NCBI GenBank assembly: GCA_964402555.1
Contig: CAYOCT010000003.1
Location: forward strand, 125,146-189,145
Length of the DNA stretch: 64,000 nt
Direction: 5' to 3'
Origin: an uncultured Nitrospiraceae bacterium
GTDB taxonomy: Bacteria > Hydrogenedentota > Hydrogenedentia > Hydrogenedentales > SLHB01
The position numbers and the translations under genes are program-made. The notes beneath the pieces are model-generated. The model did not search any database and was not told the DNA's origin. It saw nothing but the letters and a program-made list of their open reading frames with translations. Positions 20,434 to 42,591 of the stretch are shown here, in pieces; position 1 is the first letter of the stretch; each line of letters starts with the position of its first letter.

Positions 20434-21465
20434 CTACGCATCCCAATCGGTGAAGCGCCGCCGCATGAGCAAATAAAGGAAGAACGGGCCGCCAAACAAC
20501 GTCGTGACGATCCCGATCGGCGTTTCGCCGGGAAGGATCTTGCGGGCCAGGATGTCGCAGAAACATAGAAATCCCGCGCCCACCAGCATGCTCACCGGCA
20601 TCAGCAGGCGGTGCCGCGATCCCGTTATACTACGCACCGCGTGCGGCACGATCAATCCGACAAACCCGATCGTGCCCACAACCGAAACCGCGATCGCCGT
20701 CAATAGCGAACCGACCAGGAAGGTGATTACTTGAAGCACGCGGACGTTCACGCCGCGGCCCGCGGCTATCTCCGCGCCGAACCCGAGTTGATCGTACTTG
20801 GGCGCCTGGAGCAATAGAACTACCGCGCACGGCAGCACGCCCACGAACAGCTTGGATACGGGCGTGTAGCCGAGGACATCGACGCCGCCCATCAGCCAGC
20901 GGTCCATCATCACAACCCGCTCCGGGTCCGCGAAGTAGCGCATGAACATGATCCCGCCGTTTGACAGCATGCCCATGGTCACGCCGCCCAGCAACAGGAC
21001 CGACGGCGAGATGCGTTCCTTGCGCGCGGCGAGCAAGTACACGATGACGATATCGATCTCGGCGAACAGGAACGCGAAGACCTGGATTGTCGGAAGCCCC
21101 AACAAGCTCGCGCTTAGTCCGTAGCCCGCGGTCAAGACGGTCGCCGTCCACGCGCCGAACGCGCCCGCGCTTGCCACGCCCAGGGTGTACGGTTCCGCAA
21201 GCGGGTTGCGCAGCATCGCCTGGAACGCGCACCCCGCCAGCGCCAAGCCGCTGCCGACGATCAGCGCTGCCAACGTCCGCGGGAGGCGCTGCTGCATCAG
21301 AATGCCGAGCATCGGGGCCTGCGACGGCGGCAGGCCCGCGCGCCACTCCGCCCACGCTTGTCCCACGCTCACCGATTCCGTGCCCACGACAAGGGTCGAC
21401 ACGATCATCGCGACGCTCGCAAGCGTCAGCGCGACAACCAGCCAGGTGTGGGTTCGACGAACCAT
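20434..21465 (-). CDS. ABC transporter permease, FecCD/BtuC family (iron-siderophore or cobalamin type)
   Basis: MVRRTHTWLVVALTLASVAMIVSTLVVG… with about 9 TM helices, as in FecCD permeases. GAGGA RBS 8-12 nt upstream. The heptamer repeat tract begins directly upstream. Confidence 0.8.
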   Translation of the reverse strand: MVRRTHTWLVVALTLASVAMIVSTLVVGTESVSVGQAWAEWRAGLPPSQAPMLGILMQQRLPRTLAALIVGSGLALAGCAFQAMLRNPLAEPYTLGVASAGAFGAWTATVLTAGYGLSASLLGLPTIQVFAFLFAEIDIVIVYLLAARKERISPSVLLLGGVTMGMLSNGGIMFMRYFADPERVVMMDRWLMGGVDVLGYTPVSKLFVGVLPCAVVLLLQAPKYDQLGFGAEIAAGRGVNVRVLQVITFLVGSLLTAIAVSVVGTIGFVGLIVPHAVRSITGSRHRLLMPVSMLVGAGFLCFCDILARKILPGETPIGIVTTLFGGPFFLYLLMRRRFTDWDA

Positions 21466-21961
21466 CAGCAAGTCCTCGTGATTTTGGATTTTGGATTTTG
21501 GATTTTGGATTGATGCACCGCCTCTGCGTAATCCGGCCTGAATACTCGAATTCGCGGGCATACCGAGAAACGTAATGCCGAATCGTGATTGCAGCGTTCT
21601 TCTTCCACCGCGAGGCAATCCAAAATCCAAAATCTAAAATCCAAAATCCCCTGCTTATTCCCCAATCTTCTCTGCCCAACTACCCCATGAACGGTCCTTG
21701 ACAAGACAAGCCAATTGCAGCGAGCGTGATGCTGAATCGTGGCAATGTACTCGTCCACCACCGCAAGGCAATCCAAAATCCAAAATCCAAAATCCAAAAT
21801 CCCCTGCTTACTCCCCAATCTTCTCTGCCCAACCGCCCCATGAACGGTCCTTGACAAGACAAGCCAATTGCAGCGAGCGTGATGCTGAATCGTGGCAATG
21901 TACTCGTCCACCACCGCAAGGCAATCCAAAATCCAAAATCTAAAATCCAAAATCCCCACCC
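21466..21961. repeat. intergenic tandem repeat block: about 3 copies of a ~150-bp unit, each terminated by a (GGATTTT)4 heptanucleotide microsatellite
   Basis: Near-identical units around 21651-21798 and 21804-21958, plus a diverged copy at 21513-21650. Heptamer tracts at 21481-21512, ~21616-21650, ~21768-21798 and ~21927-21957 (bottom strand GGATTTT, top strand CCAAAAT, with occasional CTAAAAT variants). Confidence 0.85.
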
Positions 21962-22849
21962 TCATTTCCCTGCCTTCTCCGCCCAGATCAACGGCGCTCC
22001 CGTGACCGGATTGCGATGCACGCGGATCGGCGCGCCGTAGGCCCGCGAAAGCAGGTCCTCCGTGAAGACCGATTCCGGTTTGCCCGACGCGATCAGTTCG
22101 TGCGTCGACGCGAGCAACAGCACGCGGTCGCAGAATTGCGCCGCGAGATTGAGGTCGTGCGTGACCACGGCGACTCCGTAGCCCTCCGAAGCCAGGCGTT
22201 CGAGCAGCGCGAAGATCTCGATCTGGTGATGGATATCGAGCGCGGACGTCGGCTCGTCGAGCAGCAGGATGTTCGGTTCCTGCGCGAGGATGCTCGCGAG
22301 CAATACGCGCTGCCGTTCGCCGCCGGACAGCGTCAGGAAGTCGCGCGCGCGGAGGTCGTCGACGCCGGTGTCGCGCAGGCAGCGTTCCGCGATGTCCTTG
22401 TCTTGCGGACGTAGCGCGCCGAACGCGCCCATGTGCGGATACCGCCCGAGGCACACGACCTCGAACACGTTGAGCGCGAACGCAGGAGTCACGGATTGCG
22501 GCAGAAACGCGAGGACGCGCGCGCGTTCCATGCTCGCAAACGAGGCGAGCGAGCGCCCATCGAGCGTGACGCGGCCGGCATGGGGTTTCAACAAGCCGCA
22601 CAGCACGCGCAACAGCGTGCTCTTCCCCGATCCGTTCGGGCCGACCAGCCCCACCATCTCGCCGCTGTGCACCATCGCGTCGACGCCCTTGAACAAGGGG
22701 CGGCCCGCTTCGTAGGCGTAGGCGAGGGATTCGGCTTTCAACGCATGAAGCAGAGGCGGCTTTTCCGAAACCGTCCCAGGCATTGTTTCCGGCTCACGAT
22801 CCGGGACGGCTTTGGAGGAACCGCCCCCACTGTCATTGCACTCGCTCAT
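21962..22849 (-). CDS. ABC transporter ATP-binding protein, FecE/BtuD family
   Basis: Walker A GPNGSGKST, signature LSGGERQRV, Walker B ILLLDEPTSALD, H-loop. Start overlaps the stop of the upstream binding-protein gene (ATGA). Confidence 0.85.
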   Translation of the reverse strand: MSECNDSGGGSSKAVPDREPETMPGTVSEKPPLLHALKAESLAYAYEAGRPLFKGVDAMVHSGEMVGLVGPNGSGKSTLLRVLCGLLKPHAGRVTLDGRSLASFASMERARVLAFLPQSVTPAFALNVFEVVCLGRYPHMGAFGALRPQDKDIAERCLRDTGVDDLRARDFLTLSGGERQRVLLASILAQEPNILLLDEPTSALDIHHQIEIFALLERLASEGYGVAVVTHDLNLAAQFCDRVLLLASTHELIASGKPESVFTEDLLSRAYGAPIRVHRNPVTGAPLIWAEKAGK

Positions 22850-23727
22850 GATGGCGGTAAGAGTGCCTCAGGATGCAGATCCTTCGCAACTATCCGCGCG
22901 ATTTCCGCAACGCGCGGACCGGGCCGCGCCGCATACGATTCGAGCACGAGGTAGATCCGGCCCTTTTGTACCGCGGGCAGCATCGGGAGCTGCTGCCAGT
23001 CGGCGATGTATTGCGCTTGTTCCGATTCGCTGAGTTTCTCGCCCGCGTGCAGTTCGAGGATGACTTCCGGCTCGCGCACCACCACCGTCTCTTTCGAGGC
23101 CTTCAAGTAGTTCATCTCGGCATCCGCGAAAAGGTTGTCGCCGCCCGCGCACTCGACGACTTCCGAGATGAACGACGTCCGGTTCGCGGTATACAGGTTG
23201 TTAAGCGTGTGCTCCGTGCGCATCGTGATTATCAGCACCTTCGGACGCGGAAGACCCGCGACGGCCTTCCGCACGGCGTCGAGTTCCGAAGTGATCCGCG
23301 CCCGCAACGCATCCGCCTCACGCTCGCAACCCAGCGCCTTGCCGATCGTCGCGATGCCCGCGTCGATCGAAGCGAGGCTGTCCATGTTCACGTTCAGCAC
23401 GGGGATGCTCTTCAGCGCCGCGAAGTCGGTGACCTTCTGATGTTTTCCGGGAAGGATCAACAGCTCCGGCGACAACGACGCTATCTTCTCGAGATTCGGA
23501 TCGACGTAGCCCCCGGCTTTCGGCAGCGCCGCGGCCTCCGGCGGATAATCGTCGAACGATCCGACCGCCACCACGCGAGCGCCTTGTCCGAGCGCAAACA
23601 CCGTCTCGGTCAAATGCGGCGCCATGGTGATGATCCCCTTGCGCGGCGCAGGCGGATTGGCGGGATTGCTGCAAGCTTGGAGACAAACGGCCAAGATGGC
23701 AACGGATAGGTTGATTGAAATCTTCAT
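22846..23727 (-). CDS. ABC transporter periplasmic substrate-binding lipoprotein (BtuF/FhuD-like, class III)
   Basis: Signal peptide plus lipobox (MKISINLSVAILAVCLQAC). Fold pattern typical of iron-siderophore/cobalamin binding proteins. Confidence 0.75.
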   Translation of the reverse strand: MKISINLSVAILAVCLQACSNPANPPAPRKGIITMAPHLTETVFALGQGARVVAVGSFDDYPPEAAALPKAGGYVDPNLEKIASLSPELLILPGKHQKVTDFAALKSIPVLNVNMDSLASIDAGIATIGKALGCEREADALRARITSELDAVRKAVAGLPRPKVLIITMRTEHTLNNLYTANRTSFISEVVECAGGDNLFADAEMNYLKASKETVVVREPEVILELHAGEKLSESEQAQYIADWQQLPMLPAVQKGRIYLVLESYAARPGPRVAEIARIVAKDLHPEALLPPS

Positions 23728-23990
23728 GCGTCCGCTGCGGGTGCTATCATTTCCTGCGAATGCCCAAAAGCCGTCAAACCCGCAATCATGCGCACAGTTA
23801 CACGCGCGCCGGGCATACAGGGGCTGTCCCCCATAGTCTGCGAATCAAGCTTCGCGCGTGTTGCCGATTTCATGCCTCACTTCTCCTGAACGACTTCGAA
23901 CTATGATACCACAGGTCAAGGCCAGCGCGTCGTTCTCGATTTCCGGAGTAAGGCGGGAACTCGTCCGCAAGCGCCGTGCGCCGTAATGCG

Positions 23991-24668
23991 TTAGCGCGTG
24001 GCGTGCCCATGAAAGAAGAACTCCCCTGTCGAACGAACGCAGGTGTTCCACCCCAAGTCCTGAAGCCGCTTCTGCAAAGCTGTCGGATCGTAAAGAATCT
24101 TTACAATGTCGTATTCGGAACCGTCATTCAGTTTTCGCCGCGCAATTCCCGAGTTCTCAAGAACGGCGTGATCGCGAGCCGTGGAGAGTGGGGTGGCAAG
24201 GCTATCGACGAAGAAGACGGCGCCCTCTGGAACCAGGCATTCGGCGAGGAAACGCCAAAACGAATCGAAACGGTCCTCAGGGACATGGGAAAGCCAGAAC
24301 CCGAAGAAGATGAAGTCGTATTTCATGCGAGGCCGCCACTCGAAGAGGTTGGCCTGGACATACTCGATTCGTTGATCGCCAACCCGTTTCCGGCATAGGC
24401 GCAGCATCTCCGGCGAGGCGTCCACCGCCGTCAAACGATCGGCATGAGGAAGAAGATACTCCGTCCAAAGTCCCGTGCCGCAGGCCAGCTCGAGAATCTG
24501 TCCGTGCGGGAGGGCGTCCGCCAAGGCTCGGCGAAGTTGCGCCACCTCGTCGAACCATCGTGCTCGCTGTTCGGCGCCACGGTCGTACCTTCCTTGCCTC
24601 AAGAACCACTCGTCATACTCATGGGCGCGCGCCTTGTAGTACGCGATCTGTTGGTGCAGAAGGTCCAC
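23991..24668 (-). CDS. class I SAM-dependent methyltransferase (small-molecule/protein type)
   Basis: Motif I ILELACGTGLWTEY, motif post-I RLTAVDASPEM, motif II/III …DFIFFGFWLSHV. Start taken at an internal GTG, 24 bp after the upstream gene stop; the ORF extends to 25019. Confidence 0.7.
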   Translation of the reverse strand: MDLLHQQIAYYKARAHEYDEWFLRQGRYDRGAEQRARWFDEVAQLRRALADALPHGQILELACGTGLWTEYLLPHADRLTAVDASPEMLRLCRKRVGDQRIEYVQANLFEWRPRMKYDFIFFGFWLSHVPEDRFDSFWRFLAECLVPEGAVFFVDSLATPLSTARDHAVLENSGIARRKLNDGSEYDIVKILYDPTALQKRLQDLGWNTCVRSTGEFFFHGHATR

Positions 24669-24691
24669 CGGGATGTCATGCCTCGTTCGGG

Positions 24692-25543
24692 TCAGGCGAG
24701 CAGTTTTCCGATACGATCCTTCACCTCGCCTGCGAACCGATCGATATGTTCTTGCACAAACTCGGCGAGACTCTTTGCCGGGTCCTCGATGAGCGGCGTC
24801 AGGTCCATGCCGAAGTTGAGGCCCTGCGTCGCGTCGACGCCGTGCGATGCGTGATACGTCGCGTGGGCTTTGCGGCGGCCCATCGTCGCAAGGTCGTAGC
24901 GCTTGCCGCCGGCGATCTGCGAATCGAACACGCCCAATAACGCCGCCTGGAGATTCTCGTGGCCCGTGCAATCGAACGCGACCTTGTCCTCGTCGATCAT
25001 CCAGTCGAGGTCGCGCCACACCTCGCAGCCGTACAGCTTCTTCGGGCGCGCGTCCGCGGGCAAACCGCGGATGGCCTCGATAAGTTTGACCGTGACGCCC
25101 ACGTGTGTGTCGTGCTTGTCCGCGGGGTTGTGCGTGTAGACAATCTCGGGGCGCGCGGCGTCGAGAAGCATCGCGATGTCCGCAACGGGGTCCTTGTTCG
25201 CGCCGTCTTTGATCGCCCCGCTCGTGTAATCCAGCAGCGCCTGCGCCGCGTACTCGCCCACGACCGCCGCCTTCTTCTGTTCCTTCCGGCGCACGACACG
25301 CATCGCGTCGTCCGTGTACTCCTTATACACGTCGTCGCGCGGCGACCCGCTTCCATTCGTTACGATGACCCCCGTGAACCACTTGTCCGCCTGTTGGAAA
25401 CACGCGAGGATTCCGCCGTAGGCCATGATTTCGAGATCGTCCTGATGCGCCCCGAACGCCATATGCGTCGTGCGCGCCAACGCCGCGTCCTCAGGCACCC
25501 CATCCGGCACATACAATTCCGCGGTGTCCAGCTTGAACTTCAT
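24692..25543 (-). CDS. PIG-L/LmbE family (GlcNAc-type) deacetylase
   Basis: MKFKLDTAELYVPDG… HMAFGAHQDDLEIMAYGGILAC (the AHPDDE-like zinc-binding motif) and a downstream H…D pattern of LmbE-like hydrolases. GGAG RBS. Start overlaps the upstream gene stop. Confidence 0.75.
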   Translation of the reverse strand: MKFKLDTAELYVPDGVPEDAALARTTHMAFGAHQDDLEIMAYGGILACFQQADKWFTGVIVTNGSGSPRDDVYKEYTDDAMRVVRRKEQKKAAVVGEYAAQALLDYTSGAIKDGANKDPVADIAMLLDAARPEIVYTHNPADKHDTHVGVTVKLIEAIRGLPADARPKKLYGCEVWRDLDWMIDEDKVAFDCTGHENLQAALLGVFDSQIAGGKRYDLATMGRRKAHATYHASHGVDATQGLNFGMDLTPLIEDPAKSLAEFVQEHIDRFAGEVKDRIGKLLA

Positions 25544-26256
25544 CCAACTTCTCCTTCGGATTTCCCCAACGATTCCAGACGCGCCAGCCATTGCCCAAAA
25601 TGCGGGCACGCCGCGCGCAGATGTTCCAAGCTAATGGCTTTGAGTGCATTTGCGGCCGCCGCACCCTTCATAGCAGCATATTCGGGAAGAAGACGTTCGA
25701 TGCGTTTGGAGGGAGCGGAATCGGGGCAATCGTCGATGCCTTCAGGATTGTCCCCCTCTATCTCGCGTTTGAGATTCTCGACCGCCTTTATCGCATTTGG
25801 AAACACGGCGAGTAGCGCTTCGGGTTTCGACAAGACCAATGCCTCGAATTCGTGAAGAGACACATACGGGATGAATCGTTCCGCGATGGATTCGTCGAGA
25901 AGCGACTCCCGAATACTCGTGAGCATGCCGGATTCTACCGAGGAACTTCGCTGGGGTTTGGGCAGGGCGGACGAGGTATTGCGATTAGGCCAGTCCGTTG
26001 GGAGCGCGTAGTAATCGACCATGGTAGTTACGTATAGCTGATAGGAGGCGGAGGATTGTCGCAGCGCGCGCTCCAATTCCATGCGCGCGCCGCGTTTCTC
26101 TTCCCAAACGCGCGTGCCGCCCGACGGCTTTCTCCCATAGTGGCCCATGCGCGCGGGCCGCGCGTAGACACCCATTGGTCCCAAGTGCGGCGTAAGCGCC
26201 TCTTCCACAAAACGGAATTCGCCACTGCCCTCAACGTAGATTCTCAGGCTAACCAC
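25540..26256 (-). CDS. DUF4276 family protein (TOPRIM/OLD-nuclease-like), partner of the upstream ABC-type ATPase
   Basis: Conserved N-terminus RIYVEGSGEFRFVEEALTPHL resembles the OLD-family TOPRIM start (hVEGxtE). Acidic GIDDCPD later. GTG start overlapping the ATPase stop by 8 bp is preferred; an alternative ATG lies at 26415. Confidence 0.6.
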   Translation of the reverse strand: MVSLRIYVEGSGEFRFVEEALTPHLGPMGVYARPARMGHYGRKPSGGTRVWEEKRGARMELERALRQSSASYQLYVTTMVDYYALPTDWPNRNTSSALPKPQRSSSVESGMLTSIRESLLDESIAERFIPYVSLHEFEALVLSKPEALLAVFPNAIKAVENLKREIEGDNPEGIDDCPDSAPSKRIERLLPEYAAMKGAAAANALKAISLEHLRAACPHFGQWLARLESLGKSEGEVG

Positions 26257-27445
26257 ACGTGGGGCCTCCGCCGATGATGTTCTTCTCCCATAACTCCCCG
26301 GTGGAGTACTCTTCAAGCCACTCACAGTAAGCTGCCGGATCGAGTTCGAGTATGACGGAACGTCCGCCGCGGTGTTCGATCGGGCGAATTCGATCCAAAT
26401 CGAACTGATCCACAAGCTGCGGAGACTGCGTGGCCACGAGGATCTGCGTTCCGTGGAAGGCAGCGCCTTTAATCATCTCCGCAAGCAATTCGATAGCGCT
26501 TGGATGGAGGCCCAGTTCGGGCTCGTCTAAAACGACGAGCGGCGGCAAACGGTCCGGGGATTGGAGGAGCAGCGCCGCGATTGCGGCAAAACGCAACGCG
26601 CCGTCCGAAATCTGATGCGGACCGAACAAGTAGCTATCGTCCGCGCGTGAACGCCAATTCAACAAGATATACCGCTCGTTCTCGGCGCGCGGCTCCAGCA
26701 CGAAGTGGCCGAATTGCGGAAAGGCCAACTGAACGGTGCTCTCTATCCTTCGGCAGTAGGGCTCCGTCTCCGCCCTCGCCTTCATGCCATGCAAGAACGC
26801 GGCGAGGTTGCCGCCATCGCTTCGCAGGGCATAGGCGTCCTCGATGTAGCCGCTCTTGCGAAACCCCGATTCGCTGGAGGTGTCGTGAAAGTGATAGGGC
26901 CGGCCGCTCTTCAAGATGCCAAAGACATCCTTCAGTATGGCATCATTCAGAAAGGTCTCTTTGAAAAGGTCCGATTCGGAGGATCCAGAACCGTTGCCGC
27001 CGAGAACATAGCCATCGGTAGCTTTCTCCTGTCCTTCACCGTACCTCACGAGCGATTCGTCGGTGAAGACCACCCCATCCCCGGCGTCGGCCGCCAAGTG
27101 AAACTCGTACTTGTAAACGCCATCGCCGGGATCTTGCGTGCCAAATTCCATGCAGGCCGCCATCTGAGGCGTCTTTTTCGAACCATAATGGAGAAGCGAA
27201 TCCGCGAAGCCGGAGCGTGCCACGTACTCCCGAAACGATCGATCCATCATGGCGGATACCATACGGAAGAACGAAACGATATTGCTCTTGCCTGCGCCAT
27301 TCGGTCCAACGAGAACCGTCACGTCTCCAAAGGCCAAACGATTCGTCACTCGGCCTCGTCCTGGAAGTCCCGGGAGATCCTGGCTGGAGAAATCGGCGGC
27401 GAATGACTTGAAGCCTTCGAGCGTCAAACCTGTCAGTTTCAGCAT
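26249..27445 (-). CDS. ABC-type AAA ATPase (AAA_15/AAA_21, OLD/AbiLi-like)
   Basis: MLKLTGLTLEGFKSF…, Walker A GPNGAGKSN. C-terminal LVVLDEPELGLHPSAIELLAEMIKG…ILVATQSPQLVDQF (Walker B plus the HP motif of the AAA_21 family). Strong GGAGGAGGAG RBS before the ATG at 27445. Confidence 0.8.
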   Translation of the reverse strand: MLKLTGLTLEGFKSFAADFSSQDLPGLPGRGRVTNRLAFGDVTVLVGPNGAGKSNIVSFFRMVSAMMDRSFREYVARSGFADSLLHYGSKKTPQMAACMEFGTQDPGDGVYKYEFHLAADAGDGVVFTDESLVRYGEGQEKATDGYVLGGNGSGSSESDLFKETFLNDAILKDVFGILKSGRPYHFHDTSSESGFRKSGYIEDAYALRSDGGNLAAFLHGMKARAETEPYCRRIESTVQLAFPQFGHFVLEPRAENERYILLNWRSRADDSYLFGPHQISDGALRFAAIAALLLQSPDRLPPLVVLDEPELGLHPSAIELLAEMIKGAAFHGTQILVATQSPQLVDQFDLDRIRPIEHRGGRSVILELDPAAYCEWLEEYSTGELWEKNIIGGGPTCG

Positions 27446-27475
27446 GGCCGCTCCTCCTCCCGCTTTCCGCAATGA

Positions 27476-28876
27476 CTATCCCGCCAGGGCCGGCAAGCTC
27501 GCCGCGGCGATGGACTGGCCTACGCGGCGGCTCTTTTCGTCGGGCAACTGGATGTTGACACTCGCGGCGATCTCGGGGAACTCGGCTTGAAGGACTTCGT
27601 TCGCGCCGTCAAGGATCAGTTGGCCGCCGCGCCCGGATGTGCACCGCCCGAGGATCAGCACGTGTTTCAGGTCGTAGAAATCGGCGTAGTGCGCGACGCC
27701 GTAGCCCATGTAGTAGCCCATGCTTTGCCAGATCTTCGTCGCGCCGTCGTGGCCGGCTTCGAGTTTCTCTTGGACGAGCTTGAGACGTTCAGCGTCGGTG
27801 ATGTCTTTCGGCAGATCGATCCCGGCCTTGGGCGCGAGGCGGAACACGCATTGCTGCGAGAAGTACAGCGCGCCGGTCCCGCGGTCGCCGGACCATTCGT
27901 CGACGGGCGCCTCGGCGCTGTAGTCGATCGGGCAGAACGCGAGTTCGTTGAGCCAGCCCGTGATGTTGCCGTCGAGCGTCACGTAGCCGCCGGCCTCGCT
28001 CGAACCCAGCGCCACGCCAAGCACGCCGTTGTCTTCGAGCGACATCGATCCCGCGAGCGCGGTCACTTCGCCGTCGTTGACGACTTCGAGCGGCACGCCG
28101 AGTTCCTGGCGAATGCGCGGGAAGATCTCGTGGACTTCGTGGAAGCGATCCTTCGGGACGCCGCGGAACAGCGACGCGATCATGACGCGGCTATTGATGA
28201 TCACGCCGGCCGAACTCCCGCCGATCGCGTCGACGCGCGGCAGCTTGGATGCGGCGGTCTTGATGCCTGCGAGGATCTCATTGTAGTGATATTGGGGATC
28301 GGAATGTTTGCGCGGTTCCCAGACGACCTCTTCACTGAAGATTGCTTCTCCATTGACCACGGCGGACACTTTGCGATCCGACGCGCCGAGATCGAACCCG
28401 ATGCGGCACCCGTCGAGATGGCGTCCGAGCGGCTGCGTGGTTTCCTTTTCGCGCGGGGCCTCGAACGGTTCGCACGACACGACCGTGAACGTGTGTTCGT
28501 ACACGTCCTCGCCCATGAAATGATAGTCGAACTTGCGCTCGCCCTCGGGACTGTACACGCGCGTGAGGTGTTCGCCGACCGATCGCGGCCCGCCCACGTA
28601 GAGCTTCCATCCCCCACGCTGCCACAACAAGAATTTCACCAGGCGTTCCGCGTAGAACAGATTGGCCTCGGCGCGCGGATGCCCGTCGGGGAACGCGCGC
28701 GTGTCGAAACGCGAAACGGAACCGTCGGCGCGTTCGAGCGCCAGCACGAGCGGCACGCCCACGCCGGACGCGTCCACTTCCTTCAAGAACGCTCGGTTGG
28801 CAAGAATCGCCGGACGAAACGAGGCGTCCAGCGGCGGTACAAAACGCGGTTGGGTGAGATTGAATCCTGCGGCCAT
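27476..28876 (-). CDS. ROK-family (sugar kinase/regulator fold) protein with an approximately 140-aa N-terminal extension
   Basis: ROK/glucokinase-like ATPase core (IGFDLGASDRKVSAVV… DAIGGSSAGVI… VNDGEVTALAG… GSSEAGGYV) preceded by an uncharacterised N-terminal domain. Same strand as the ATPase gene and 30 bp upstream of it. Confidence 0.6.
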   Translation of the reverse strand: MAAGFNLTQPRFVPPLDASFRPAILANRAFLKEVDASGVGVPLVLALERADGSVSRFDTRAFPDGHPRAEANLFYAERLVKFLLWQRGGWKLYVGGPRSVGEHLTRVYSPEGERKFDYHFMGEDVYEHTFTVVSCEPFEAPREKETTQPLGRHLDGCRIGFDLGASDRKVSAVVNGEAIFSEEVVWEPRKHSDPQYHYNEILAGIKTAASKLPRVDAIGGSSAGVIINSRVMIASLFRGVPKDRFHEVHEIFPRIRQELGVPLEVVNDGEVTALAGSMSLEDNGVLGVALGSSEAGGYVTLDGNITGWLNELAFCPIDYSAEAPVDEWSGDRGTGALYFSQQCVFRLAPKAGIDLPKDITDAERLKLVQEKLEAGHDGATKIWQSMGYYMGYGVAHYADFYDLKHVLILGRCTSGRGGQLILDGANEVLQAEFPEIAASVNIQLPDEKSRRVGQSIAAASLPALAG

Positions 28877-31930: not shown

Positions 31931-32423
31931 ACTTATGCGATAAAGATTTCTTTTCAGGATAGGCAATGCGCCGCGCGATATGGGGTCGGGGGCGTGGCGC
32001 GGGAGATGGAAGTTCGTGGGCCGCGCCGACGGAGATAGCAGACATCCTTTACATCGATCGGCATGCCCTCTCTCCGTCTTGGTCGCCACCTGGATAACGC
32101 CCGGTTACCCTTGACCGGCTTGGGATAGCGGGTTAGACTATTTCTACGGTAAAGTCTGCATGGCAAAATGGGCTTAGCCGCGCGAGCTTTGGGTGCGGCT
32201 CGGATTGTGGGAGACGGCGCAGCGGCCTTCCGGCGCGCCGGAGGACAGGTGAATAGAGGAATAGGGCCACCCATGCAGACATACATGGCGTGCGCTCCGG
32301 CAAACATGAATCGTCTGCTATGCCTCGGAATGCGCGGAGGCCGGGGTCTAGAGTGATATACGTGCAGGGAGGCCCGTGTTCCGCGGGCGCCCGAGGGCAG
32401 GTTGTTGCCGAGGAGGAAAGGTC

Positions 32424-35400
32424 ATGCGTACGTCATCAGTGTTCCGTGGGGCGATCCTTGTCATTCTAGCGTCGATCGGGGGCATCGGATGCCCCTGGAT
32501 AGCGCCCAAAGCACAATTCGCGGCGTACCCGCAAAGCGGTATGGCCCCGCTCGAGGTCCAATTCACGGACCAGTCCGTTCCAGGCGTCGTTCCAATCTCG
32601 CAGTGGGCATGGGACTTTGGCGATGGCGGAACGAGCCGCGCTCGCAATCCCAAGCACACGTACTCCGCTTCGGGATCGTACACGGTCTCGCTTACAGTCA
32701 AGGGTTTCCTGGCCCAGAGCACGGCGGCCATACAGGACCTCATTCAGGTTTCGGGCGAGGGCGAAGGGGAAGGCGAGGGTGAGGGCGAGGGCGAGCAGCC
32801 TGTGTATTTTGTGGTCGGCGATCCGCTGAGCATCGCCCATGGCGCCTACGTGCTGCCGTTGACCAACGCGGACGATATCGCCCACGCGCGGGACGTTATT
32901 GCGGACCCGGCCAACACGGACATGCACATCGTGGTCGCGCGCATCGATCGCGGGGGAACCGAGGGAGAGTATACCAACTGCGATCCATACCATCCCGGAA
33001 ACGTCTGGTCGTGGCGCGTGACGGAATTCGTCGGGTTTGCCGACAACACCATCGAGATCCTGGATGGTTGGCCGCAATATGTCGAGGACAATCTGGATGC
33101 GTGGATGCAGGCTACCGGCGGCGAGATCGGATTCTGGAACTGCCGAGTCTTGTACGAATTGACGGACGGATGCCCCGGCGCCGAAGGCGAAGGCGAAGGC
33201 GAAGGCGAAGGCGAGGGCGAAGGCGAGGGTGAAGGTGAAGGCGAAGGCGAAGGCGAGGGTGAAGGCGAAGGTGAAGGCGAAGGCGAAGGCGAAGGCGAAG
33301 GCGAAGGTGAAGGTGAAGGCGAGGGTGAAGGTGAGGGTGAGGGCGAAGGTGAAGGTGAAGGTGAAGGTGAAGGCGAGGGCGAAGGTGAAGGTGAAGGTGA
33401 AGGTGAGGGTGAGGGTGAAGGTGAGGGCGAAGGCGAAGGCGAGTTGTTCTTGATCGGCGTCTTCCCTGCGGCGGGTTCCGGGGCCGGCGGTACACTTGTC
33501 TATATCCCCGGTGGCGGATTTGTTAGCGAGGGAACCACGCGCGTGCTGTTCGGCGACGCCGACGCGACCAACGTGCTTGTGGGTTCCTCCGATGGTGTCG
33601 ATTATGTGCAGTGTGTGACCCCGCCGCACGCGCACGGTACGGTGGATGTCACCGTCATCAATCCCGATGGCGCAAGCGCCTATCTGCCCGCCGCCTTTAC
33701 GTATCAGGACGCGCCTGCGGTGGCGTTCATCGAGCCGAATGCGGGGTCGTCGTTAGGCGGGCAGCATGTGACCGTCCGAGGCTCGGGTTTCATGAGTTCC
33801 GGCGCAACCAGGGTTACGTTCGGTGGCGCTGACGCAACGGAAGTTACCGTCATCGACGACGGTTACAATCCGCCGTTTGTCACGTGTGTCGCGCCACTGC
33901 ACGCGCCAGGCGTCGTCGACGTCACGGTCATCAATCCTGACGGGTTGCGCGGGACGCTCGCGAGGCGCTTCACGTATTTTTCACCGGTTTACATTCAACG
34001 CGATGGCCGCTATGTGACGAATGCGTCGGTCGGATACGAGGGCGGGCCGTTCTATCCCGACAAGGTGCCCTATGGCCTAAGGAATAGCCACACGGCAGCG
34101 CTAATGTACGACCTGAAGGTCACGAATGACATCCTGCAGATCGAGTTCCCGATGGGGCTTCCGCCCGTGCCCGGAATAACCGGTACCGTTGCCAGGGATA
34201 GCTATGGCACAACCTTCTTGGCGGATCTCGCGGACGATGTCGTCAACCGGCTCACTCCCGGAACATACCCGACCGGACTCCAGTTAACGAACGTCACGTT
34301 CCAGCAATTTGCTCAAGCCGAAGACATCTACCTGGACGTCCTGGATCGGAGCGAGCCGGGGCTTGAGGTCACTCCGAGGGAGGATTTCTATGCGGCGGGA
34401 CCTGTCGGCGGGCCATTCGAGCCCCTGGCGAAGATCTACCGATTCTACAATCCGGACCCGACACCGGTTGCGGTCAGCGCGTTCCTCGTGAACACGGACC
34501 GGTATCTCTCGCTTGACCCGTCGCGGTACGTGCAGGGCGTCGAAACAACCCTGGATGCGTTCCAGGCCATCGACGTTGGCGTCTATGTCGATCAGACGCT
34601 GACCGGCAGGCTCGATGCAACCGAACTTACCAACCAGCTCCGGTTCTACAACGCAACGCTGGGTAAGGTGGCCGCCGCCCGGATGATCTATGTGACCGTG
34701 TCTGAAGACGACTTCAGCGGCCTGTCGTTCGTCGACGTGCTTAACAACATAGGACAGAACACGGCATTGCTGGGCATCGCTCCGGAACCCGGTCTCCCCG
34801 AAGATGCCGACTACAATGGCCCAGGATGGTCTCCTGGGGATGCCCTGTCCGTCCATGTCAGCGGCAATGGAATGCCCGACGCAACCACGGAACTCAAGTT
34901 GATCGAGAATGTCCTCCATGATCGGTCCTTCTCCCTGCCGAACGGACTGACCCACGCGCGCGTGGCCAGCGCATGGCATGCCAATCGGCAGCGTCTTGCG
35001 CAGGACTTGGCCCCTGTGTGGGACATGTTCGAGGTCTTGCTGCCGGGGTTCCAGGATTTCCTCACCGGTATGATGATCATTGGCGACGGAGAGATGGATC
35101 TTTCAGACCCAAGCGTCGTGCGTTGGACCGGTTCGGCGGGCTTCGTTCAGGGGCTCCTGCATTCGTTCCGAGAAGTCTTCGGTATCGAAGACATCGACCT
35201 CAGCCATTACATTCGCATGCCGGAGTACTTCGCGTTCTATGGCGACGCGGACGGCGACGGCTGCAAGAACTACTTCGAGTACGTACGGAACTCGTGGGAC
35301 TTTCCCTACGATGTCATCGCGCTCGATCCCGCGTTTAACAGTGAGAACCTCTGCATGATCGATGTTGTTCCCTCGTCTAGGGCAGGAGGCACTTTCATCG

Positions 35401-38400
35401 GCTATCCGGAAGGGCCTTTCGAACCTGAGTCGTATTCGTACACGTTGACCAACCTCGCTGCCTCAGCCAGGACGTACGAGATCCGAAACAACTCTTATCT
35501 TGGGTTCAGGATGCCGGGGACGGAGATTGGAAGCCACTTTGTCCAGGGAACGCTGGAAGCCTATCAGGCTGTCGCTATCGAGGTGTACGTGGATGCCAAT
35601 GTGGCACGCACTCTGTCGGCTGGACGAAGTCACTCCGATTCCGTCCGCGTGATCAGTTCGGGCGGTTCGCTGTTTATCGGCGATAATCCCCCGTTCTTCC
35701 TCGACCTACTTGCGCCGGGAACAAGTTCCTTGCGCGTCACACCCGAGACCGATTTCCAGACCACGTTTCAGGCGGGCAGTTCGCTGGCGAGCACGTGCGC
35801 AACCTATGCGCTCGAAAACGTGACGTCAGCGACGATACGGTACGCGGTAAACCGCGACCATGCCGGAATCGCGTTCAAGCCTAGCCCGGGCGGCGTGCTT
35901 ACCAACGTCCTGTCGGGCGCCTTGGGCGCGATGCAATCCGTCGATATCCGCGTGTATCTCGATCCGTCGTCGCCGAATTGGAACTCGCCCGGGGAATACA
36001 GCAACGCCGTGACGTTCGTAGACGGGACGTTGAACGCCGTGGCGGCCACGCGGGGCGTCTATGTGGAAGTGACGCCCGCGCAGCCCGTGCTCGATTACGA
36101 TTTCACCGACTACTTCAACCGGGTACGCAACAATTCATTCGTCGCCTTGCTGCCCCCCGAGTATGGAAGCATCATGCTGATGCTGGATCCGAATACCGCG
36201 GACTTCAACGGCCCTTCGTCAATGAAGCTGAGTCCGCTCCAGCTCAATATTCAAGGCAACGGCATGCTGGATTGCCTGCACGAACTGGCGCTTGTCCAGG
36301 CGGTGCTAAATGACCCGAACTTTTCGCTGCCGAACGGCCTCACGCATCAGCGCGTCATCGACGCTTGGAACCAGAATATTGGCCAGTTTGCTGCGGATGT
36401 CGGCAGCTACTGGCCGATACTCGGTGCGTTGATGGACGGCCTGCCTCAGATTCTCAACGGCATGATGATCCTGGGAGACGGATCGGCGCAGACCTCGGAT
36501 CCCAACATGGTGATTTGGGACGGTTCCGCTGGATTCATCCAAGCGTTGATGAGCCTTCTCGGCGGGTACATCACGAATCCGACGATCGACCTCGACACCT
36601 ATGGCCGGTTGCCGGAGTTCTTCTCGAAAGATGGCGATGCCGATGGCGATGGATGCTCGAACTATGAAGAGTTCCTCGCCTACGGGTCCAATCCCGCGGT
36701 CTATGTCGCCAACGCGCTGAACCCCGACGTTCATCCGAGTGACTGTGCCGGTGAGGGCGAAGGTGAAGGTGAGGGTGAAGGTGAGGGTGAAGCCGCGTTC
36801 TGCGATTTCTGGCCGCTGGCAGTCGGGAATCAGTGGAACTGGAATGATGGCCAGGACAACGCCGAGACCTTCGAGATAGTCGATTTCTTCGTGGCGAACG
36901 GGTTCCGTGCGTGGCAGATGTACAACATGTTCTATGGGTTCGTCACAACGACCACGGTGCAGAATCTCGTCTTCGTGGACGGGTGGCTGTACGTTACGCC
37001 GGACATTGCGGACCTCGATGCGCTGCCCGCGATCACGGGCAGTCTCAAGGGATGGGTTCCCGAGGTCATGACGTGTGGCCAGTCGTTCTACTCGCCGTTG
37101 TTCGGCAAGACGATTACTCCGATGTGCTCGGGCGATACACTCTCCCTGTCGGTCGAAGGTGTGCCTGAGCCGCTGGTGCTCGAGCGCGGTCTCGGTCCGA
37201 TGAACTTCGGCGGGCTGGGCGGCACATACTCGCAGACGATTGTCGGCGGATGCGACACGGACACGGAGGACTTCAGCGCAGACCCCGGCGAGCAGCCGTT
37301 GAGCGGCGGCTCGTTTCCGATGGTCCAGTGGGTAAGCGGCGAGACGAGTACGGGTACGATCGATCTGAAGCCCGCAAGTCCCACCGTTCAGGATGTCCTC
37401 TACTTCAATCTTCCCACGAGCGTGTTCGGGCTTGCGGGTCTTGCGGAAGCCGCCGCGGGCGGCCATCCGAACCTCGTAGTCGACGCGCTTACCCATCGCG
37501 TCGAGTTGCGGTTCGTTCCGCCGGCCGCGCCGCCGGCAATTACGCTGTGGGATCCGGTGTGCGGTATGGAAGGCCACTTCGGCCCCATCGAAGCGGGCGA
37601 CTGGGAGTTCTTCTGCGACAATGCCCTTGTGCCCTTCTCGATGACGTTCCACGTCAATCCGGCAGAAGGCCAGGGCCAAGTCGCTTGGATTCCGGGAGAA
37701 ACGAGTCCAGGCGCATGGATGGTTCTGCCTCCGGCGCCCGTCGAATCGAGTCCGGTACGGTTTGAAGGCCCCATTCCCCTTCAAGGCAACGCGTGCCTCG
37801 CGACGGTCGCGGCGGGAGGACGTCCCGAACTCCATATCGATCAGGCCGCGCACACCATCGAATTGTGGTACCGCCCGCCCGCGCCGGACGCCTGCATCGA
37901 GGTCTTCGATCCCGTGTGCGGCCTGCGCGGCACGTTTGGATACTTGGAGGCCGGCACGTGGACTTTCTATTGCACGAGTCCGTTCTCGACGTTCAATCTT
38001 TCGTTCGAGGTCGCGCCCGCGGGCGGCGGTCCACCGGCGCACATGTTCTGCGACTACCTGCGCAGTCTCCTGAGCAATCAGCTCGTGGCGATGCTGCCCT
38101 CGGAATTCGCTGGCTCGATATGGCAACTTACGCCGGAGAATGTGGACTGGAACGGGGAATGGTCGATTAGCGCGGACGGCATTGCAACCTTGGGCTACAA
38201 TGGCAACGGCTTGCTCGACTGTTACCACGAGATGAAACTCGTCGAAATCGTCCTGAACGATCCTAACTTCCGGCTGCCCAACGGACTGACGCATGCACTC
38301 GTGCAGCAGGCTTGGGACACGAACGAAGCGCAGTTTGCCCGCGATGTAGGTTCGTACTGGGCGTTGATGCGGGCTCTGGTCGACGGATTGCCGCAAATCG

Positions 38401-41400
38401 CTAACGCCTACATGATCCTGGGCGACGGTTCCGCCACGCAAGACCCCGTTACAGGCGAAATCGTTTCCGAAGGTTCCGCGGGCCTGGTCCAGGCATTGAT
38501 GTTGACGCTCGGCTCGAACATTACGAACGCCCACATCGACCTCGCCAACTACGGGCGTTTGCCGCAGTACTTCTCGAAGTATGGCGACGCGGACGGCGAT
38601 GGATGCTCGAACTACGAAGAATTCCTGGCCTATGGTTCTGATCCCGATCGGTACGCTGCCAACGCGCTCAATCCCCGCGTGCATCCCATTTCATGCAGTG
38701 GGGAAGGAGAGGGCGAGGGAGAAGGAGAAGGCGAGGGTGAGGGTGAGGGTGAAGGTGAAGGTGAAGGTGAACCGCAAGGACTGTTCTGCGGCTACATCGA
38801 TCAGCTTCGCTCGAACTCGCTGCTTCAAATGCTCCCGGCCGAGTACCAACCGTTCCTGAACCTGATCGTGCCGGAAGCAGTCGATATCAACGGCAGCGCG
38901 TGGCTCGATCAGAACGGCAGCGCCACCTTCGATCTCCAAGGCAACGGCATGTTCGATTGCGTCTACGAGTTGCGGCTTGTCGAGGCAGTCATGGCTGACC
39001 CGGCGTTTGCGTTGCCCAATGGCTTGACCCACGCTTTGGTCCAACAGGCGTGGAACACCAGCGAGGCCCAGTTCCAGGCGGATATCGGCAGCTACTGGAG
39101 CTTGGCCGGCGCGCTTGTGCCCGGGTTGAAGGAACTCCTCAAAGGCTACATGTTGCTCGGCGATGGCTCGGCCGATCTCTCCGATCCGAATCACATTACG
39201 TGTCAAGGTTCGGCCGGGTTGATCCAGGCGCTGGTTTTCCTGATTGGCGACTATGCGATGAATCCCAACATCGACCTGAGCCAGTATGGGCGTCTGCCGG
39301 AGTACTTCTCGAAGGACGGCGACGCCGATGGCGACGGATGCTCGAACTACGAAGAGTTCCTCGCCTATGGTTCGGACCCGTTGGTCTACGTGGCCAACGC
39401 GCTCGATCCGAACGTTCATCCGGCGCTGTGCAAAGGCGGATCCGAAGGCGAAGGCGAGGGAGAGGGAGAAGGTGAAGGTGAAGGCGAGGGAGAGCCGCAG
39501 GGACAGTTCTGCGGCTATATCGATCAGCTTCGTTCGAACTCCCTCGTCCAGATGCTTCCCCCGGAGTATCTGCCCTATCTGGATCTGATCGTGCCGGAGG
39601 CAGTCGATATCAACGGCAGTGCGTGGCTCGATCAAAACGGCAGCCCGACCTTCGACCTCCAAGGCAACGGCATGCTCGATTGCGTTTACGAGTTGCGACT
39701 CGTCGAAGCCGTCATGGCTGACCCGGCGTTTGCGTTGCCCAATGGCTTGACCCACGCTTTGGTCCAACAGGCGTGGAACACCAGCGAGGCCCAGTTCCAG
39801 GCGGATATCGGCAGCTACTGGAGCTTGGCCGGCGCGCTTGTGCCCGGGTTGAAGGAACTCCTCAAAGGCTACATGTTGCTCGGCGATGGCTCGGCCGATC
39901 TCTCCGATCCGAATCACATTACGTGTCAAGGTTCAGCCGGGTTGATTCAGGCGGTGGTCTTCCTGATCGGCGACTATGTAGCGAATCCCAACATCGATCT
40001 GAGCCTGTACGGCCGCCTGCCGGAGTACTTCTCGAAGGACGGCGACGCTGATGGCGACGGCTGCTCGAACTACGAAGAGTTCCTCGCCTACGGTTCGGAC
40101 CCGCTGGTCTACGTGGCCAACGCGCTCGATCCGAATGTCCATCCGGCGTTGTGCAAAGGCGGATCGGAAGGTGAAGGCGAAGGCGAGGTCGTCCCGCTGT
40201 GCGACTTTCTGCCCCTCGCCGAAGGGAATGAGTGGAACTTCAATATACCTCTGATGGTGGGATCTGGCGGGCGCTTGGCAGTGACGGACCAGACCGAGTG
40301 GAATGGCGTCCGCGTGTGGGAGGTCGAAGAGGACACCTACGGCGACTTGACGACTTCTTCGTCGCTCTTGTACATGGCCTTCGTCGACGGATGGCTTTGG
40401 GCAACGAGCGCCGCCAATGACATCTACCAGCTTCCCGCGATCACGGGCAGTTTTCGACAGATGCTTCCCGAGACTGTTGTCAGCGGACAATCGTATTATC
40501 TTCCCGCGTTGTCCGTGACCGTCACGACGGCCCTGGAAAGCCCCGATGTCCTGAGCGCCCAGGTGCAGTACATGGGGCTGACCTTGAGCATACTCCTGGG
40601 CCGAGGCCTTGGATTCATCGACAGCGCTGTCATAGACGTGACCAGCGCGAGCATTGTGGGCGGCTGCGGCGACGGATGGAGCGGCAGCGGTGAGGGCGAA
40701 GGAGAGGGAGAAGGCGAAGGCGAGGGCGAGGGAGAGGGAGAAGGAGAAGGAGAAGGAGAACTTCCCAAGACGTTCTGCAACTACTTCCAGATGGTCCACG
40801 ACAACACCCTGCTCCAGGTGCTCCCGTCCGAGTATTTCTTCATCACGAACCTGTTGTCGCCCGATCAAGCTGATCTCAACGGAGACTCGTACGTGCAGTT
40901 GAATCCGTCGACCGAGTTCGGCATCAACGGCAACGGTATGCTCGATTGCGTCTACGAGATGAAGCTGATCGAGAAGGTCCTCAACGATCCGGAATTCGAC
41001 CTGCCCAACGGGTTGACCTATGCGCTCGTCCAGGCCGCATGGAACAAAAACGCTGCGCAGTTCGCGGCGGATGTCGGGCAATACTGGGGCTTGCTCGGCT
41101 CGCTTGCGAACGGCTTGCCGCAGATCCTCAACGCGTACATGATTCTCGGCGATGGTTTCGCGCAGCAGGATCCTTCGACCGGACGGATCGATTGCACCGG
41201 ATCGGCGGGATTGATCCAGGCCATCATGCTGTTGCTCGACGGCCAAATCGCCAACAGCCACATCGATCTCGATACGTACGGGCGCCTGCCGCAGTATTTC
41301 GCGAAGGACGGCGATGCCGACGGCGACGGTTGCACGAACTACGAAGAGTTTCTTGCGTACGGTTCCGATCCGGCGCTGTACGCAGCCAACGCCCTCGACC

Positions 41401-41942
41401 CGAACGTGCATCCCGATGCGTGCTCCGGTGAAGGCGAAGGAGAGGGCGAGGGTGAAGGTGAGCTCCTTGCAGTGTGCGACTACTGGCCTCTGGCCAAAGG
41501 CAACTACTGGCGGTGGCACACCGGTATGATTGACGCGGATGGCGGCGAGATTGCCGTGACCGATTCGAGCGTTGTCAACGGATTCAAGACGTGGGAAGTG
41601 AAGCTCTACGCTGACACAATCGCCGGGTTGTTGCCTCAACTGGACGTCTTTGTCGTCTTCGTCGACGGCTGGCTCTACGGCACGGATGTGCGCGCCGACC
41701 TCGACGGCTTGCCCGTCGTCGGTGGCGGGATGCAGCGCATCTGCCCGCAGACCATGCAATCCGGCCAAACGTTCACGTCGGATTACTTCGGCTGGCCAGT
41801 GACGGTCAGCGGCGGCGCATCTACGGTCCTGGTTTCGGTCAGTGGGTTCGGACCACTGTTCATCTTGTCCCAAGGCCAGGGACCGACAGCCGGTATACTC
41901 GGCGCTTTCGATCCTCCGGTTATCGTCGGCGGGTGCGAGTAG
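32424..41942 (+). CDS. giant (3172 aa) modular cell-surface lipoprotein: PKD domain, two IPT/TIG domains, repeated Ca-binding (DADGDG) modules, (Gly-Glu)n linkers
   Basis: AGGAGG RBS then ATG at 32424 ([23 protein letters not shown], lipobox). PKD-like segment (WAWDFGDGG…HTY…GSYTVSLTV). An 88-codon pure (GE)n run at ~33178-33443 and about 8 shorter GE linkers. IPT-like domains ([17 protein letters not shown]…[10 protein letters not shown]). Six copies of an approximately 215-aa module ending …[21 protein letters not shown]…NALNPxVHPxxC. Three copies of an approximately 160-aa module ([16 protein letters not shown]…). Two copies of an approximately 90-aa module. The ORF track starts at an upstream in-frame Met at 32376. 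Confidence 0.85.
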
Positions 41943-42015: not shown

Positions 42016-42591
42016 ATGGGCAATGCTGACAACTTGAATGTCGTGCCATGGCCGCATGCGCCGACACACCAATTGTCGGACGCCGGAACCTATTTCGTGA
42101 CCTCCGGCGCCTATCGTAAAGATCACTTCTTTCGCGGCGGTAAACGCCTTTCGGTGCTACAACGTGGGCTTCTTAAGCTCGCTGCCCGTTTCGGATGGCG
42201 GGTCGAAGCGTGGGCCGTCTTTTCGAATCACATCCACTTCGTAGCGCATTCACCAGAGGACGGAGCGGAAAGCCTAAGGGAACTTCTCACTATCCTTCAC
42301 CGAGAGACAGCGATTTGGGTCAACAAACTCGACAAGTCCCCGGCCCGCAAGGTATGGCACAACTTTCGTGAGACTCGCCTGACCTTCGAGAAGTCCTACC
42401 TGGCCCGTCTCAACTACGTCCATCAGAATCCGGTCAGGCATGGCCTCGTGCCGATTGCTTCACGATACCCCTGGTGTTCCGCGACATGGTTTGAACAGGT
42501 GGCCACTCCGGCCCAGGTACGAACGATTTACAGTTTCAAGACCGACTCGCTCACGGTCTATGACGAATACGATGTCTGCGACGAATGGTAG
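42016..42591 (+). CDS. REP-associated tyrosine transposase (RAYT; IS200/IS605 TnpA-like, Y1 HUH family)
   Basis: 191 aa with an HxH motif (FSNHIHFVAH) and a distal catalytic Tyr region (…SYLARLNYVHQNPVRHGLV…). Flanked on both sides by REP hairpins. Confidence 0.75.
   Translation: MGNADNLNVVPWPHAPTHQLSDAGTYFVTSGAYRKDHFFRGGKRLSVLQRGLLKLAARFGWRVEAWAVFSNHIHFVAHSPEDGAESLRELLTILHRETAIWVNKLDKSPARKVWHNFRETRLTFEKSYLARLNYVHQNPVRHGLVPIASRYPWCSATWFEQVATPAQVRTIYSFKTDSLTVYDEYDVCDEW

Follow-up and report, generated by a model that had tools for sequence, protein, structure and literature searches.

Do five genes packed end to end on one DNA strand work as a single system, or do they share a locus for other reasons? 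The block that raises this question lies in a 64,000-nucleotide stretch of contig CAYOCT010000003.1 (assembly GCA_964402555.1, Hydrogenedentota lineage), which in its full length is referred to here as the window. It encodes a ROK-like protein, an ABC-type ATPase, a DUF4276 protein, an LmbE/PIG-L-family deacetylase, and a class I small-molecule methyltransferase dependent on S-adenosylmethionine (SAM). The initial annotation, made from the letters alone, took the ATPase and DUF4276 genes for an undescribed defense pair with the other three genes as enzymatic accessories. Our analysis leads to a different answer. The locus is very likely a mosaic, in which a HEC-01 cassette, made up of the ATPase and DUF4276 genes, was inserted once into the ROK–LmbE junction of a host operon and the methyltransferase gene was added separately.

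The layout first described holds, with one small correction. The minus strand carries all five genes, and their junctions, read from the window sequence, are +30, −8, −4, and +23 nt; the last had been given as 24. The ROK-like gene (27476–28876) has an ATG start and encodes 466 residues. Thirty nucleotides past its stop, and behind a strong ribosome-binding site, GGAGGAGGAG, the ATPase gene (26249–27445; ATG start, 398 residues) begins. It shares 8 bp with the DUF4276 gene (25540–26256; GTG start, 238 residues), which in turn shares 4 bp, in an overlap of the ATGA type, with the LmbE gene (24692–25543; 283 residues). The methyltransferase gene (23991–24668; 225 residues) has a GTG start that is backed by the orthologue P0121, in which MDLLQQQ stands at the same position. 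Co-transcription of the five genes is plausible because a consensus scan found no minus-strand promoter-like site in the block and terminator-like sites were in no excess over shuffled sequence. An Rfam scan of the whole window likewise gave no riboswitch or other RNA match that would split the operon. The tight junctions and the lack of a promoter or terminator between the genes speak for a five-gene defense system, in which the LmbE deacetylase, the methyltransferase, and possibly the ROK-like protein would supply the pair with a signal or effector derived from a sugar, either by making it or by modifying it. Whether these genes also travel together in other genomes is where that proposal and the mosaic part company.

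Identity of the ATPase–DUF4276 pair

Both proteins of the pair match published profiles over nearly their full lengths. The ATPase is recognized by the PADLOC model HEC-01A (PDLC04175) with an E-value of 1.5e-107 and 357.8 bits, residues 36–395 aligning to profile positions 21–362 of 363, and the DUF4276 protein is recognized by HEC-01B (PDLC04188; E-value 4e-54) over profile positions 12–227 of 230. Pfam places the ATPase in the AAA_15/AAA_21 group, as had been proposed (AAA_21, 1.9e-25; AAA_15, 8.4e-9), and the DUF4276 family matches its partner along the full length (1.9e-37). The motifs first quoted for the two proteins (Walker A, LDEPE, and VEGxGE) are all present in the translations. In the ATPase, the Walker A motif GPNGAGKS at residue 47, the signature ISDGALR at 279, and the Walker B motif VVLDEPE at 304 are intact; the N terminus of the DUF4276 protein bears YVEGSGE. 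Among 60 aligned DUF4276 homologues, E13, D81, E136, and E138 are invariant and E9 is near-invariant, and the protein has the hallmarks of a TOPRIM fold whose metal-binding site is conserved. The two genes are also adjacent and co-oriented, as HEC-01 genes are. By sequence and predicted fold, the pair is an ABC ATPase together with a metal-dependent TOPRIM nuclease, with the motifs of both intact.

At the H-loop position of HEC-01A (ATPase residues 337–343), TQS replaces THS in 75 of 76 homologues, and TES is found in the remaining one. This exchange of histidine for glutamine may affect ATP hydrolysis. An exact look-up of the 398-residue ATPase returned no recorded match, which probably reflects a different start chosen by another gene caller.

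HEC-01, for Hma-embedded candidate 01, was found inside Hma defense loci and consists of an ABC ATPase along with a TOPRIM partner with the metal site of OLD (Payne et al., bioRxiv 10.1101/2024.01.29.577857). DUF4276 had also been placed in the Toprim superfamily, with Mad4 of MADS as a named homologue (PMC12065111), and the PARIS paper (PMC11464382) names it as one partner of AAA15/21 ATPases. The suggestion of a split OLD-type ATPase–nuclease pair was therefore right, given the near-full-length HEC-01A and HEC-01B matches, the conserved acidic residues, and the intact ATPase motifs, but the pair was not undescribed: it corresponds to PADLOC HEC-01. On these matches, it is a new Hydrogenedentota member of this candidate anti-phage family. 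Like HEC-01, the cassette has an ABC ATPase gene followed by a DUF4276/TOPRIM gene with its metal-site residues conserved. It differs in its setting; the published example is embedded in Hma, whereas this cassette is surrounded by the genes of a sugar-type operon for metabolism and transport.

Other defense systems that join related domains fit less well. In the PADLOC scan, AriA, AbiLi, Old, GajA, NsnB, and mad3 all score far below HEC-01A for the ATPase, several of them mainly around Walker B. In PARIS, the nuclease AriB is a DUF4435 TOPRIM protein, whereas here the partner is DUF4276; the ATPase matches AriA mainly along a C-terminal stretch, and neither Pfam nor PADLOC finds AriB or DUF4435 in the DUF4276 protein, which is matched by HEC-01B models alone. 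Without an AriB/DUF4435 partner, membership in PARIS is ruled out. OLD and GajA have the ATPase and TOPRIM domains fused in one polypeptide, in contrast to the two overlapping genes found here. Their profile hidden Markov models (HMMs) score weakly (Old, 7.8e-15; GajA, about 1e-10) and mainly in the Walker B region, and the list of open reading frames (ORFs) and the Pfam matches of the window hold no GajB/UvrD-like gene near the cassette. The two separate ORFs, the weak HMM scores, and the lack of a UvrD-like neighbor rule out OLD and Gabija. AbiL likewise has two genes, for an ATPase and a Toprim-superfamily nuclease, but its AbiLii is RloB, another Toprim family. The ATPase matches AbiLi at 7.6e-18, against 1.5e-107 for HEC-01A, and AbiL is excluded because the PADLOC scan gave no AbiLii/RloB match.

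MADS comes closest in parts list, as it too has an AAA_21-type ATPase (Mad3) and a DUF4276 protein (Mad4) (PMC12065111). A MADS reading would make the methyltransferase mad2, the ATPase mad3, and the DUF4276 protein mad4. The ATPase matches PADLOC mad3 at 3.2e-25 but reaches only 68.7 bits against NCBIfam MADS3 (NF047739), for which the cut-off is 420; no mad4 model in PADLOC matches the DUF4276 protein; and the methyltransferase matches mad2 weakly (4.8e-19), over profile positions 263–398 of 492, the generic SAM-binding core. With a score below the cut-off, matches to partial domains, and the other mad genes absent, this reading was rejected. The weak mad2 match lends the five-gene system some support, against which its restriction to the generic core counts.

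Judging from OLD, Gabija, and PARIS, a phage cue or the state of a nucleotide might be what the ATPase detects, and the ATPase would thereupon license or set free the metal-dependent TOPRIM nuclease, which would cleave DNA or tRNA. Translation of HEC-01A would be coupled to that of HEC-01B.

The host operon and the probable history of the insertions

If the five genes formed one system, the pair should be accompanied elsewhere by the other three. A DUF4276 alignment scan of metagenomes gave, among the matches listed, 80 loci with relatives of 31–41% identity. In 75 of these, DUF4276 is immediately preceded by the ATPase gene; a homologue of LmbE, the methyltransferase, or ROK is found in none of the 80, of which 48 show a downstream flank of 1 kb or more. 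Three relatives at middle distance (L084, L085, and L167; 52–59% identity) are all in unrelated contexts. The genes first cast as accessories are thus missing beside the pair in all 83 loci outside the clade considered below, 80 of these being the distant loci among the matches listed. DUF4276 homologues are also carried by 13 plasmids from several phyla, most of them annotated beside an AAA ATPase gene; one of these plasmids, a mobilizable one of 11 kb from Acinetobacter, has the pair by itself with VapBC as its neighbor. No DUF4276 homologue was found in phage genomes. As a two-gene unit, the pair is autonomous and horizontally mobile, and it exists without ROK, LmbE, or the methyltransferase everywhere outside one Hydrogenedentota subclade.

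The genes that flank the cassette have a history of their own. The backbone of the locus is a conserved operon for a ROK-fold kinase, an LmbE-type deacetylase, a Peripla_BP_2 substrate-binding protein, an ABC ATPase, and a FecCD permease. The ROK-like protein, the first product of this operon, is a divergent sugar-kinase-like protein with no Pfam (E ≤ 0.01) or NCBIfam match, and it alone lacks such a match among the families first named for the block (AAA_21/AAA_15, DUF4276, PIG-L, and Methyltransf_25 were all matched). In an AlphaFold model with a predicted local distance difference test score (pLDDT) of 81, its C-terminal ∼320 residues match ROK glucokinases and N-acetylglucosamine (GlcNAc) and N-acetylmannosamine (ManNAc) kinases in Foldseek, with an E-value of 2e-16 and a target template-modeling (TM) score of 0.74 for the ROK glucokinase 3vgk; an additional domain of ∼150 residues precedes them. 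The protein has more than 8000 homologues, and the best 120 are 74–86% identical and named "ROK family protein" by their sources. Two of the 120 listed orthologues have a precomputed PF00480 match, and the named homologues among these best 120 are labeled Hydrogenedentota, Anaerolineae, or FCB group. The LmbE protein matches Pfam PIG-L (PF02585) at 1.5e-15 and has the AHQDD and HDTH metal-site motifs in its translation; orthologues of 64–87% identity directly follow ROK in other genomes. With GlcNAc and ManNAc kinases among the structural neighbors of the kinase, an N-acetyl-amino-sugar would be the most plausible substrate for the kinase and the deacetylase.

We searched 80 species-representative loci around ROK orthologues with the proteins of the window. 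Sixty-six of them have an LmbE orthologue next after ROK, no more than 300 bp away in 59 cases, and in most Hydrogenedentota loci the Peripla_BP_2, ABC ATPase, and FecCD genes come next, as they do in the window. Where LmbE is missing, the genes that come after ROK are ordinary metabolic ones. The ATPase–DUF4276 pair is present in one of the 80 loci (L002), at the same place after ROK, and the methyltransferase in none. The pairing of ROK with LmbE is ancestral, is conserved widely, and occurs in the absence of the cassette; the adjacency of these two genes in ∼65 other species that lack the ATPase–DUF4276 pair argues against a five-gene unit.

Exact look-ups of the nearest DUF4276 homologues (59–69% identity) recovered close relatives of the cassette. 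Seven contigs carry the pair as the window does: the window itself, L002, a 4.6-kb contig from ENA, L081, L166, L168, and L169. ROK precedes the pair and LmbE follows it wherever the flanks can be seen. This repeated ROK–pair–LmbE order, with the methyltransferase in two of the seven contigs, would favor a five-gene system were it not that every recurrence lies within one clade. In an LmbE tree computed without bootstrap, the window, L081, L166, and L169 fall into one clade together with L001, which has no pair. Of 300 bootstrap neighbor-joining trees built on identity distances, 265 (88%) unite the embedded DUF4276 proteins in one clade, to the exclusion of DUF4276 proteins from other settings. 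Because the seven contigs form one clade, a single old insertion followed by vertical descent accounts for them. The initial annotation had allowed that the adjacency might prove fortuitous, and this is essentially what was found: it recurs only by vertical descent in one clade.

Within that clade, the pair diverges much faster than the genes beside it. Embedded DUF4276 proteins are 58–76% identical to one another, whereas the flanking LmbE proteins are 79–92% identical; between L081 and L166 the values are 76% for DUF4276 and 92% for LmbE, and between the window and L081 they are 59% and 87%. The tight DUF4276–LmbE junction is not conserved either, as the distance between the two genes ranges from +16 to +34 nt among sister loci and is −4 in the window, a variation that does not suit a five-gene system. 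The simplest history consists of a single old insertion and vertical inheritance, plus one loss or a second gain. We propose that the ancestor of the subclade acquired an autonomous ATPase–DUF4276 cassette on a single occasion, between ROK and LmbE, and that the cassette was then inherited vertically while evolving much faster than its neighbors. The cassette probably uses the transcript of the host operon, because its junctions to ROK and LmbE are 30 nt long and overlapping, respectively. The tight spacing to these genes is no sign of a shared function.

The methyltransferase gene tells a separate story. Its product matches Pfam Methyltransf_25 (3.3e-16), as well as Methyltransf_23 and Methyltransf_11, and its best match in the PDB (E-value 7e-38) is 3ou2, annotated as a SAM-dependent methyltransferase; we take 3ou2 to be DhpI, a phosphonate O-methyltransferase and thus a small-molecule enzyme. 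This nearest structure, too, speaks against a role as mad2. The gene follows LmbE in the window and in L081. In L166, the sister of L081, the pair is present, the methyltransferase is absent, and the LmbE–binding-protein junction measures 32 bp, an arrangement at odds with a five-gene unit. Three homologues of the methyltransferase (58–62% identity) are in miscellaneous neighborhoods without HEC-01 or LmbE. The gene is a separate and later insertion at the LmbE–binding-protein junction, independent of the pair. Next to it in the window lies a truncated DUF433 ORF of 49 residues (23724–23873, minus strand; Pfam DUF433, 4e-05, profile positions 4–38 of 56), and a DUF433-like small ORF also stands after the methyltransferase in L081 (2510–2635). 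The two seem to have arrived as one unit, because the homologous ORF follows the methyltransferase in L081 too; in the history proposed here, the methyltransferase and this DUF433 remnant would have entered the LmbE–binding-protein junction apart from the cassette.

Base composition divides the block in the same way. The GC content at third codon positions (GC3) is 0.81 for ROK, 0.83 for LmbE, 0.77 for the binding protein, 0.82 for the transporter ATPase, and 0.84 for the permease, compared with 0.68 for the HEC-01 ATPase, 0.62 for DUF4276, and 0.68 for the methyltransferase. This contrast between inserted genes (0.62–0.68) and backbone (0.77–0.84) agrees with a mosaic origin and sets the inserted genes apart from the host genes with which a five-gene system would unite them.

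Weighing the readings

Several observations count against a mosaic with a defense cassette at its center. No HEC-01 has been shown to defend its host, and the representative that was tested left E. coli unprotected against the phages used (bioRxiv 10.1101/2024.01.29.577857). The Pfam scan of the window found no other recognizable defense genes near the cassette. Searches for insertion scars and for direct or inverted repeats around the cassette gave only chance-like short matches. The trees are simple neighbor-joining trees, many of the contigs are short, and L001, inside the clade without the pair, calls for a clean loss or a second gain. Finally, the cassette has been kept in the operon while DUF4276 diverged as far as it has, and its junctions in the window are tight (−8 and −4). 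This long retention and these junctions leave room for a lineage-specific functional or regulatory link.

Long retention in a non-defense context could also be expected of a selfish, toxin–antitoxin-like module for addiction or stabilization, kept because its loss is costly. The Pfam entry for AAA_21 speaks of a putative AbiEii toxin domain, the pair is found on small plasmids beside VapBC, and HEC-01 gave no protection in its sole test. However, the pair was cleanly lost in L001, or never gained there, the nearest characterized architectures (OLD, Gabija, and PARIS) are anti-phage, and HEC-01 was discovered embedded in Hma defense loci. We consider an addiction module unlikely.

It is also possible to see the ROK–LmbE junction as a hot spot that takes up defense cassettes again and again, or exchanges them, as recombination acts through the conserved flanking genes. 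The junction does tolerate insertions. Between ROK and LmbE, L007 (11416–11904) and L019 (11366–11938) have a GNAT-like acetyltransferase ORF, L039 (11404–11823) a GNAT-related and apparently disrupted one, L017 (11415–11825) a 136-residue ORF of no assigned identity, and L040 (3409–4171) two small ORFs. These different inserts at one junction and the identity of DUF4276, far under that of the flanking LmbE, would both suit a hot spot. The other inserts are not defense-like, however; they are GNAT-like or small unassigned ORFs with no defense genes among them, and on this ground the hot spot was rejected. The monophyly of the embedded DUF4276 proteins in most bootstrap trees and the ordinary metabolic genes that follow ROK in loci without LmbE point the same way, and we regard repeated insertion of defense cassettes as quite improbable.

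A further reading keeps the HEC-01 cassette and gives its position a function. Captured by an amino-sugar operon of ROK and LmbE, the cassette would depend on an N-acetyl-sugar metabolite, or on turnover of the cell envelope, for its expression or for its trigger. This would explain both the long retention at one junction and the coupling to LmbE seen here, but we give it a very slim chance. The five-gene defense system is very improbable and is largely refuted by the synteny set out above.

What remains best supported is the mosaic of a host operon, one HEC-01 cassette, and a separately added methyltransferase. No new class of defense system with enzymatic accessory genes is revealed by this locus.

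Surroundings of the block and wider meaning

The host operon continues downstream on the minus strand with the genes for the Peripla_BP_2 substrate-binding protein (22846–23727; Pfam, 1.8e-27), the transporter ABC ATPase (21962–22849; ABC_tran, 5.4e-31), and the FecCD-family permease (20434–21465; FecCD, 7.2e-79), the last two also assigned by conserved synteny. Between the ATPase and the permease, a 153-bp unit (21605–21957) is repeated in 2.3 tandem copies with 97% matches, each with runs of the heptamer (AATCCAA)n. The spacer between the two genes is ∼500 bp here, owing to this expansion, versus ∼20 bp in several orthologous loci; the repeat is a third insertion into the same operon. The heptamer run is found inverted at 21480–21511 and again at 49021–49052 (15 matches versus 0 expected by chance).

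Elsewhere in the window, two genes encode ATPases with AAA_14 and DUF4143 domains, at 8997–10316 on the plus strand and at 42802–43950 on the minus strand; one of them has a weak Mrr_cat-like C-terminal signal (E-value 0.007), and a weak IS200-like Y1 transposase ORF (42016–42591) adjoins the gene at 42802–43950. A giant ORF on the plus strand (32376–41942; 3188 residues) is built of repeat modules of ∼300 residues that end in the motif DGDADGDGC(S/K/T)NYEE(F/Y) and are set apart by long (GE)n spacers. Its product is probably a secreted or surface protein.

The ROK–LmbE pair is kept across Hydrogenedentota and Anaerolineae/Chloroflexota. Between loci whose labels name different phyla, the complete chromosomes CP070811 and OY782877 among them, ROK is 69–84% identical. 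The taxon labels given to metagenome-assembled genomes are not reliable. Contigs with the ROK–LmbE–transporter operon, among them L001, L003, L016, L024, and L030, are labeled Nitrospiraceae, Bathyarchaeia, or Verrucomicrobiota in their records, and these labels are probably the result of mis-binning or mislabeling. The conserved ROK–LmbE pair may merit more study than the five-gene block itself.

Overall, the locus is a caution that tight and even overlapping gene junctions alone are no proof of a functional unit, because small defense-type cassettes can settle in conserved metabolic operons and use their transcripts. It brings a clade of Hydrogenedentota into the HEC-01 family, and it indicates that such a cassette can persist at one chromosomal junction over the long term while outpacing its neighbors in divergence.

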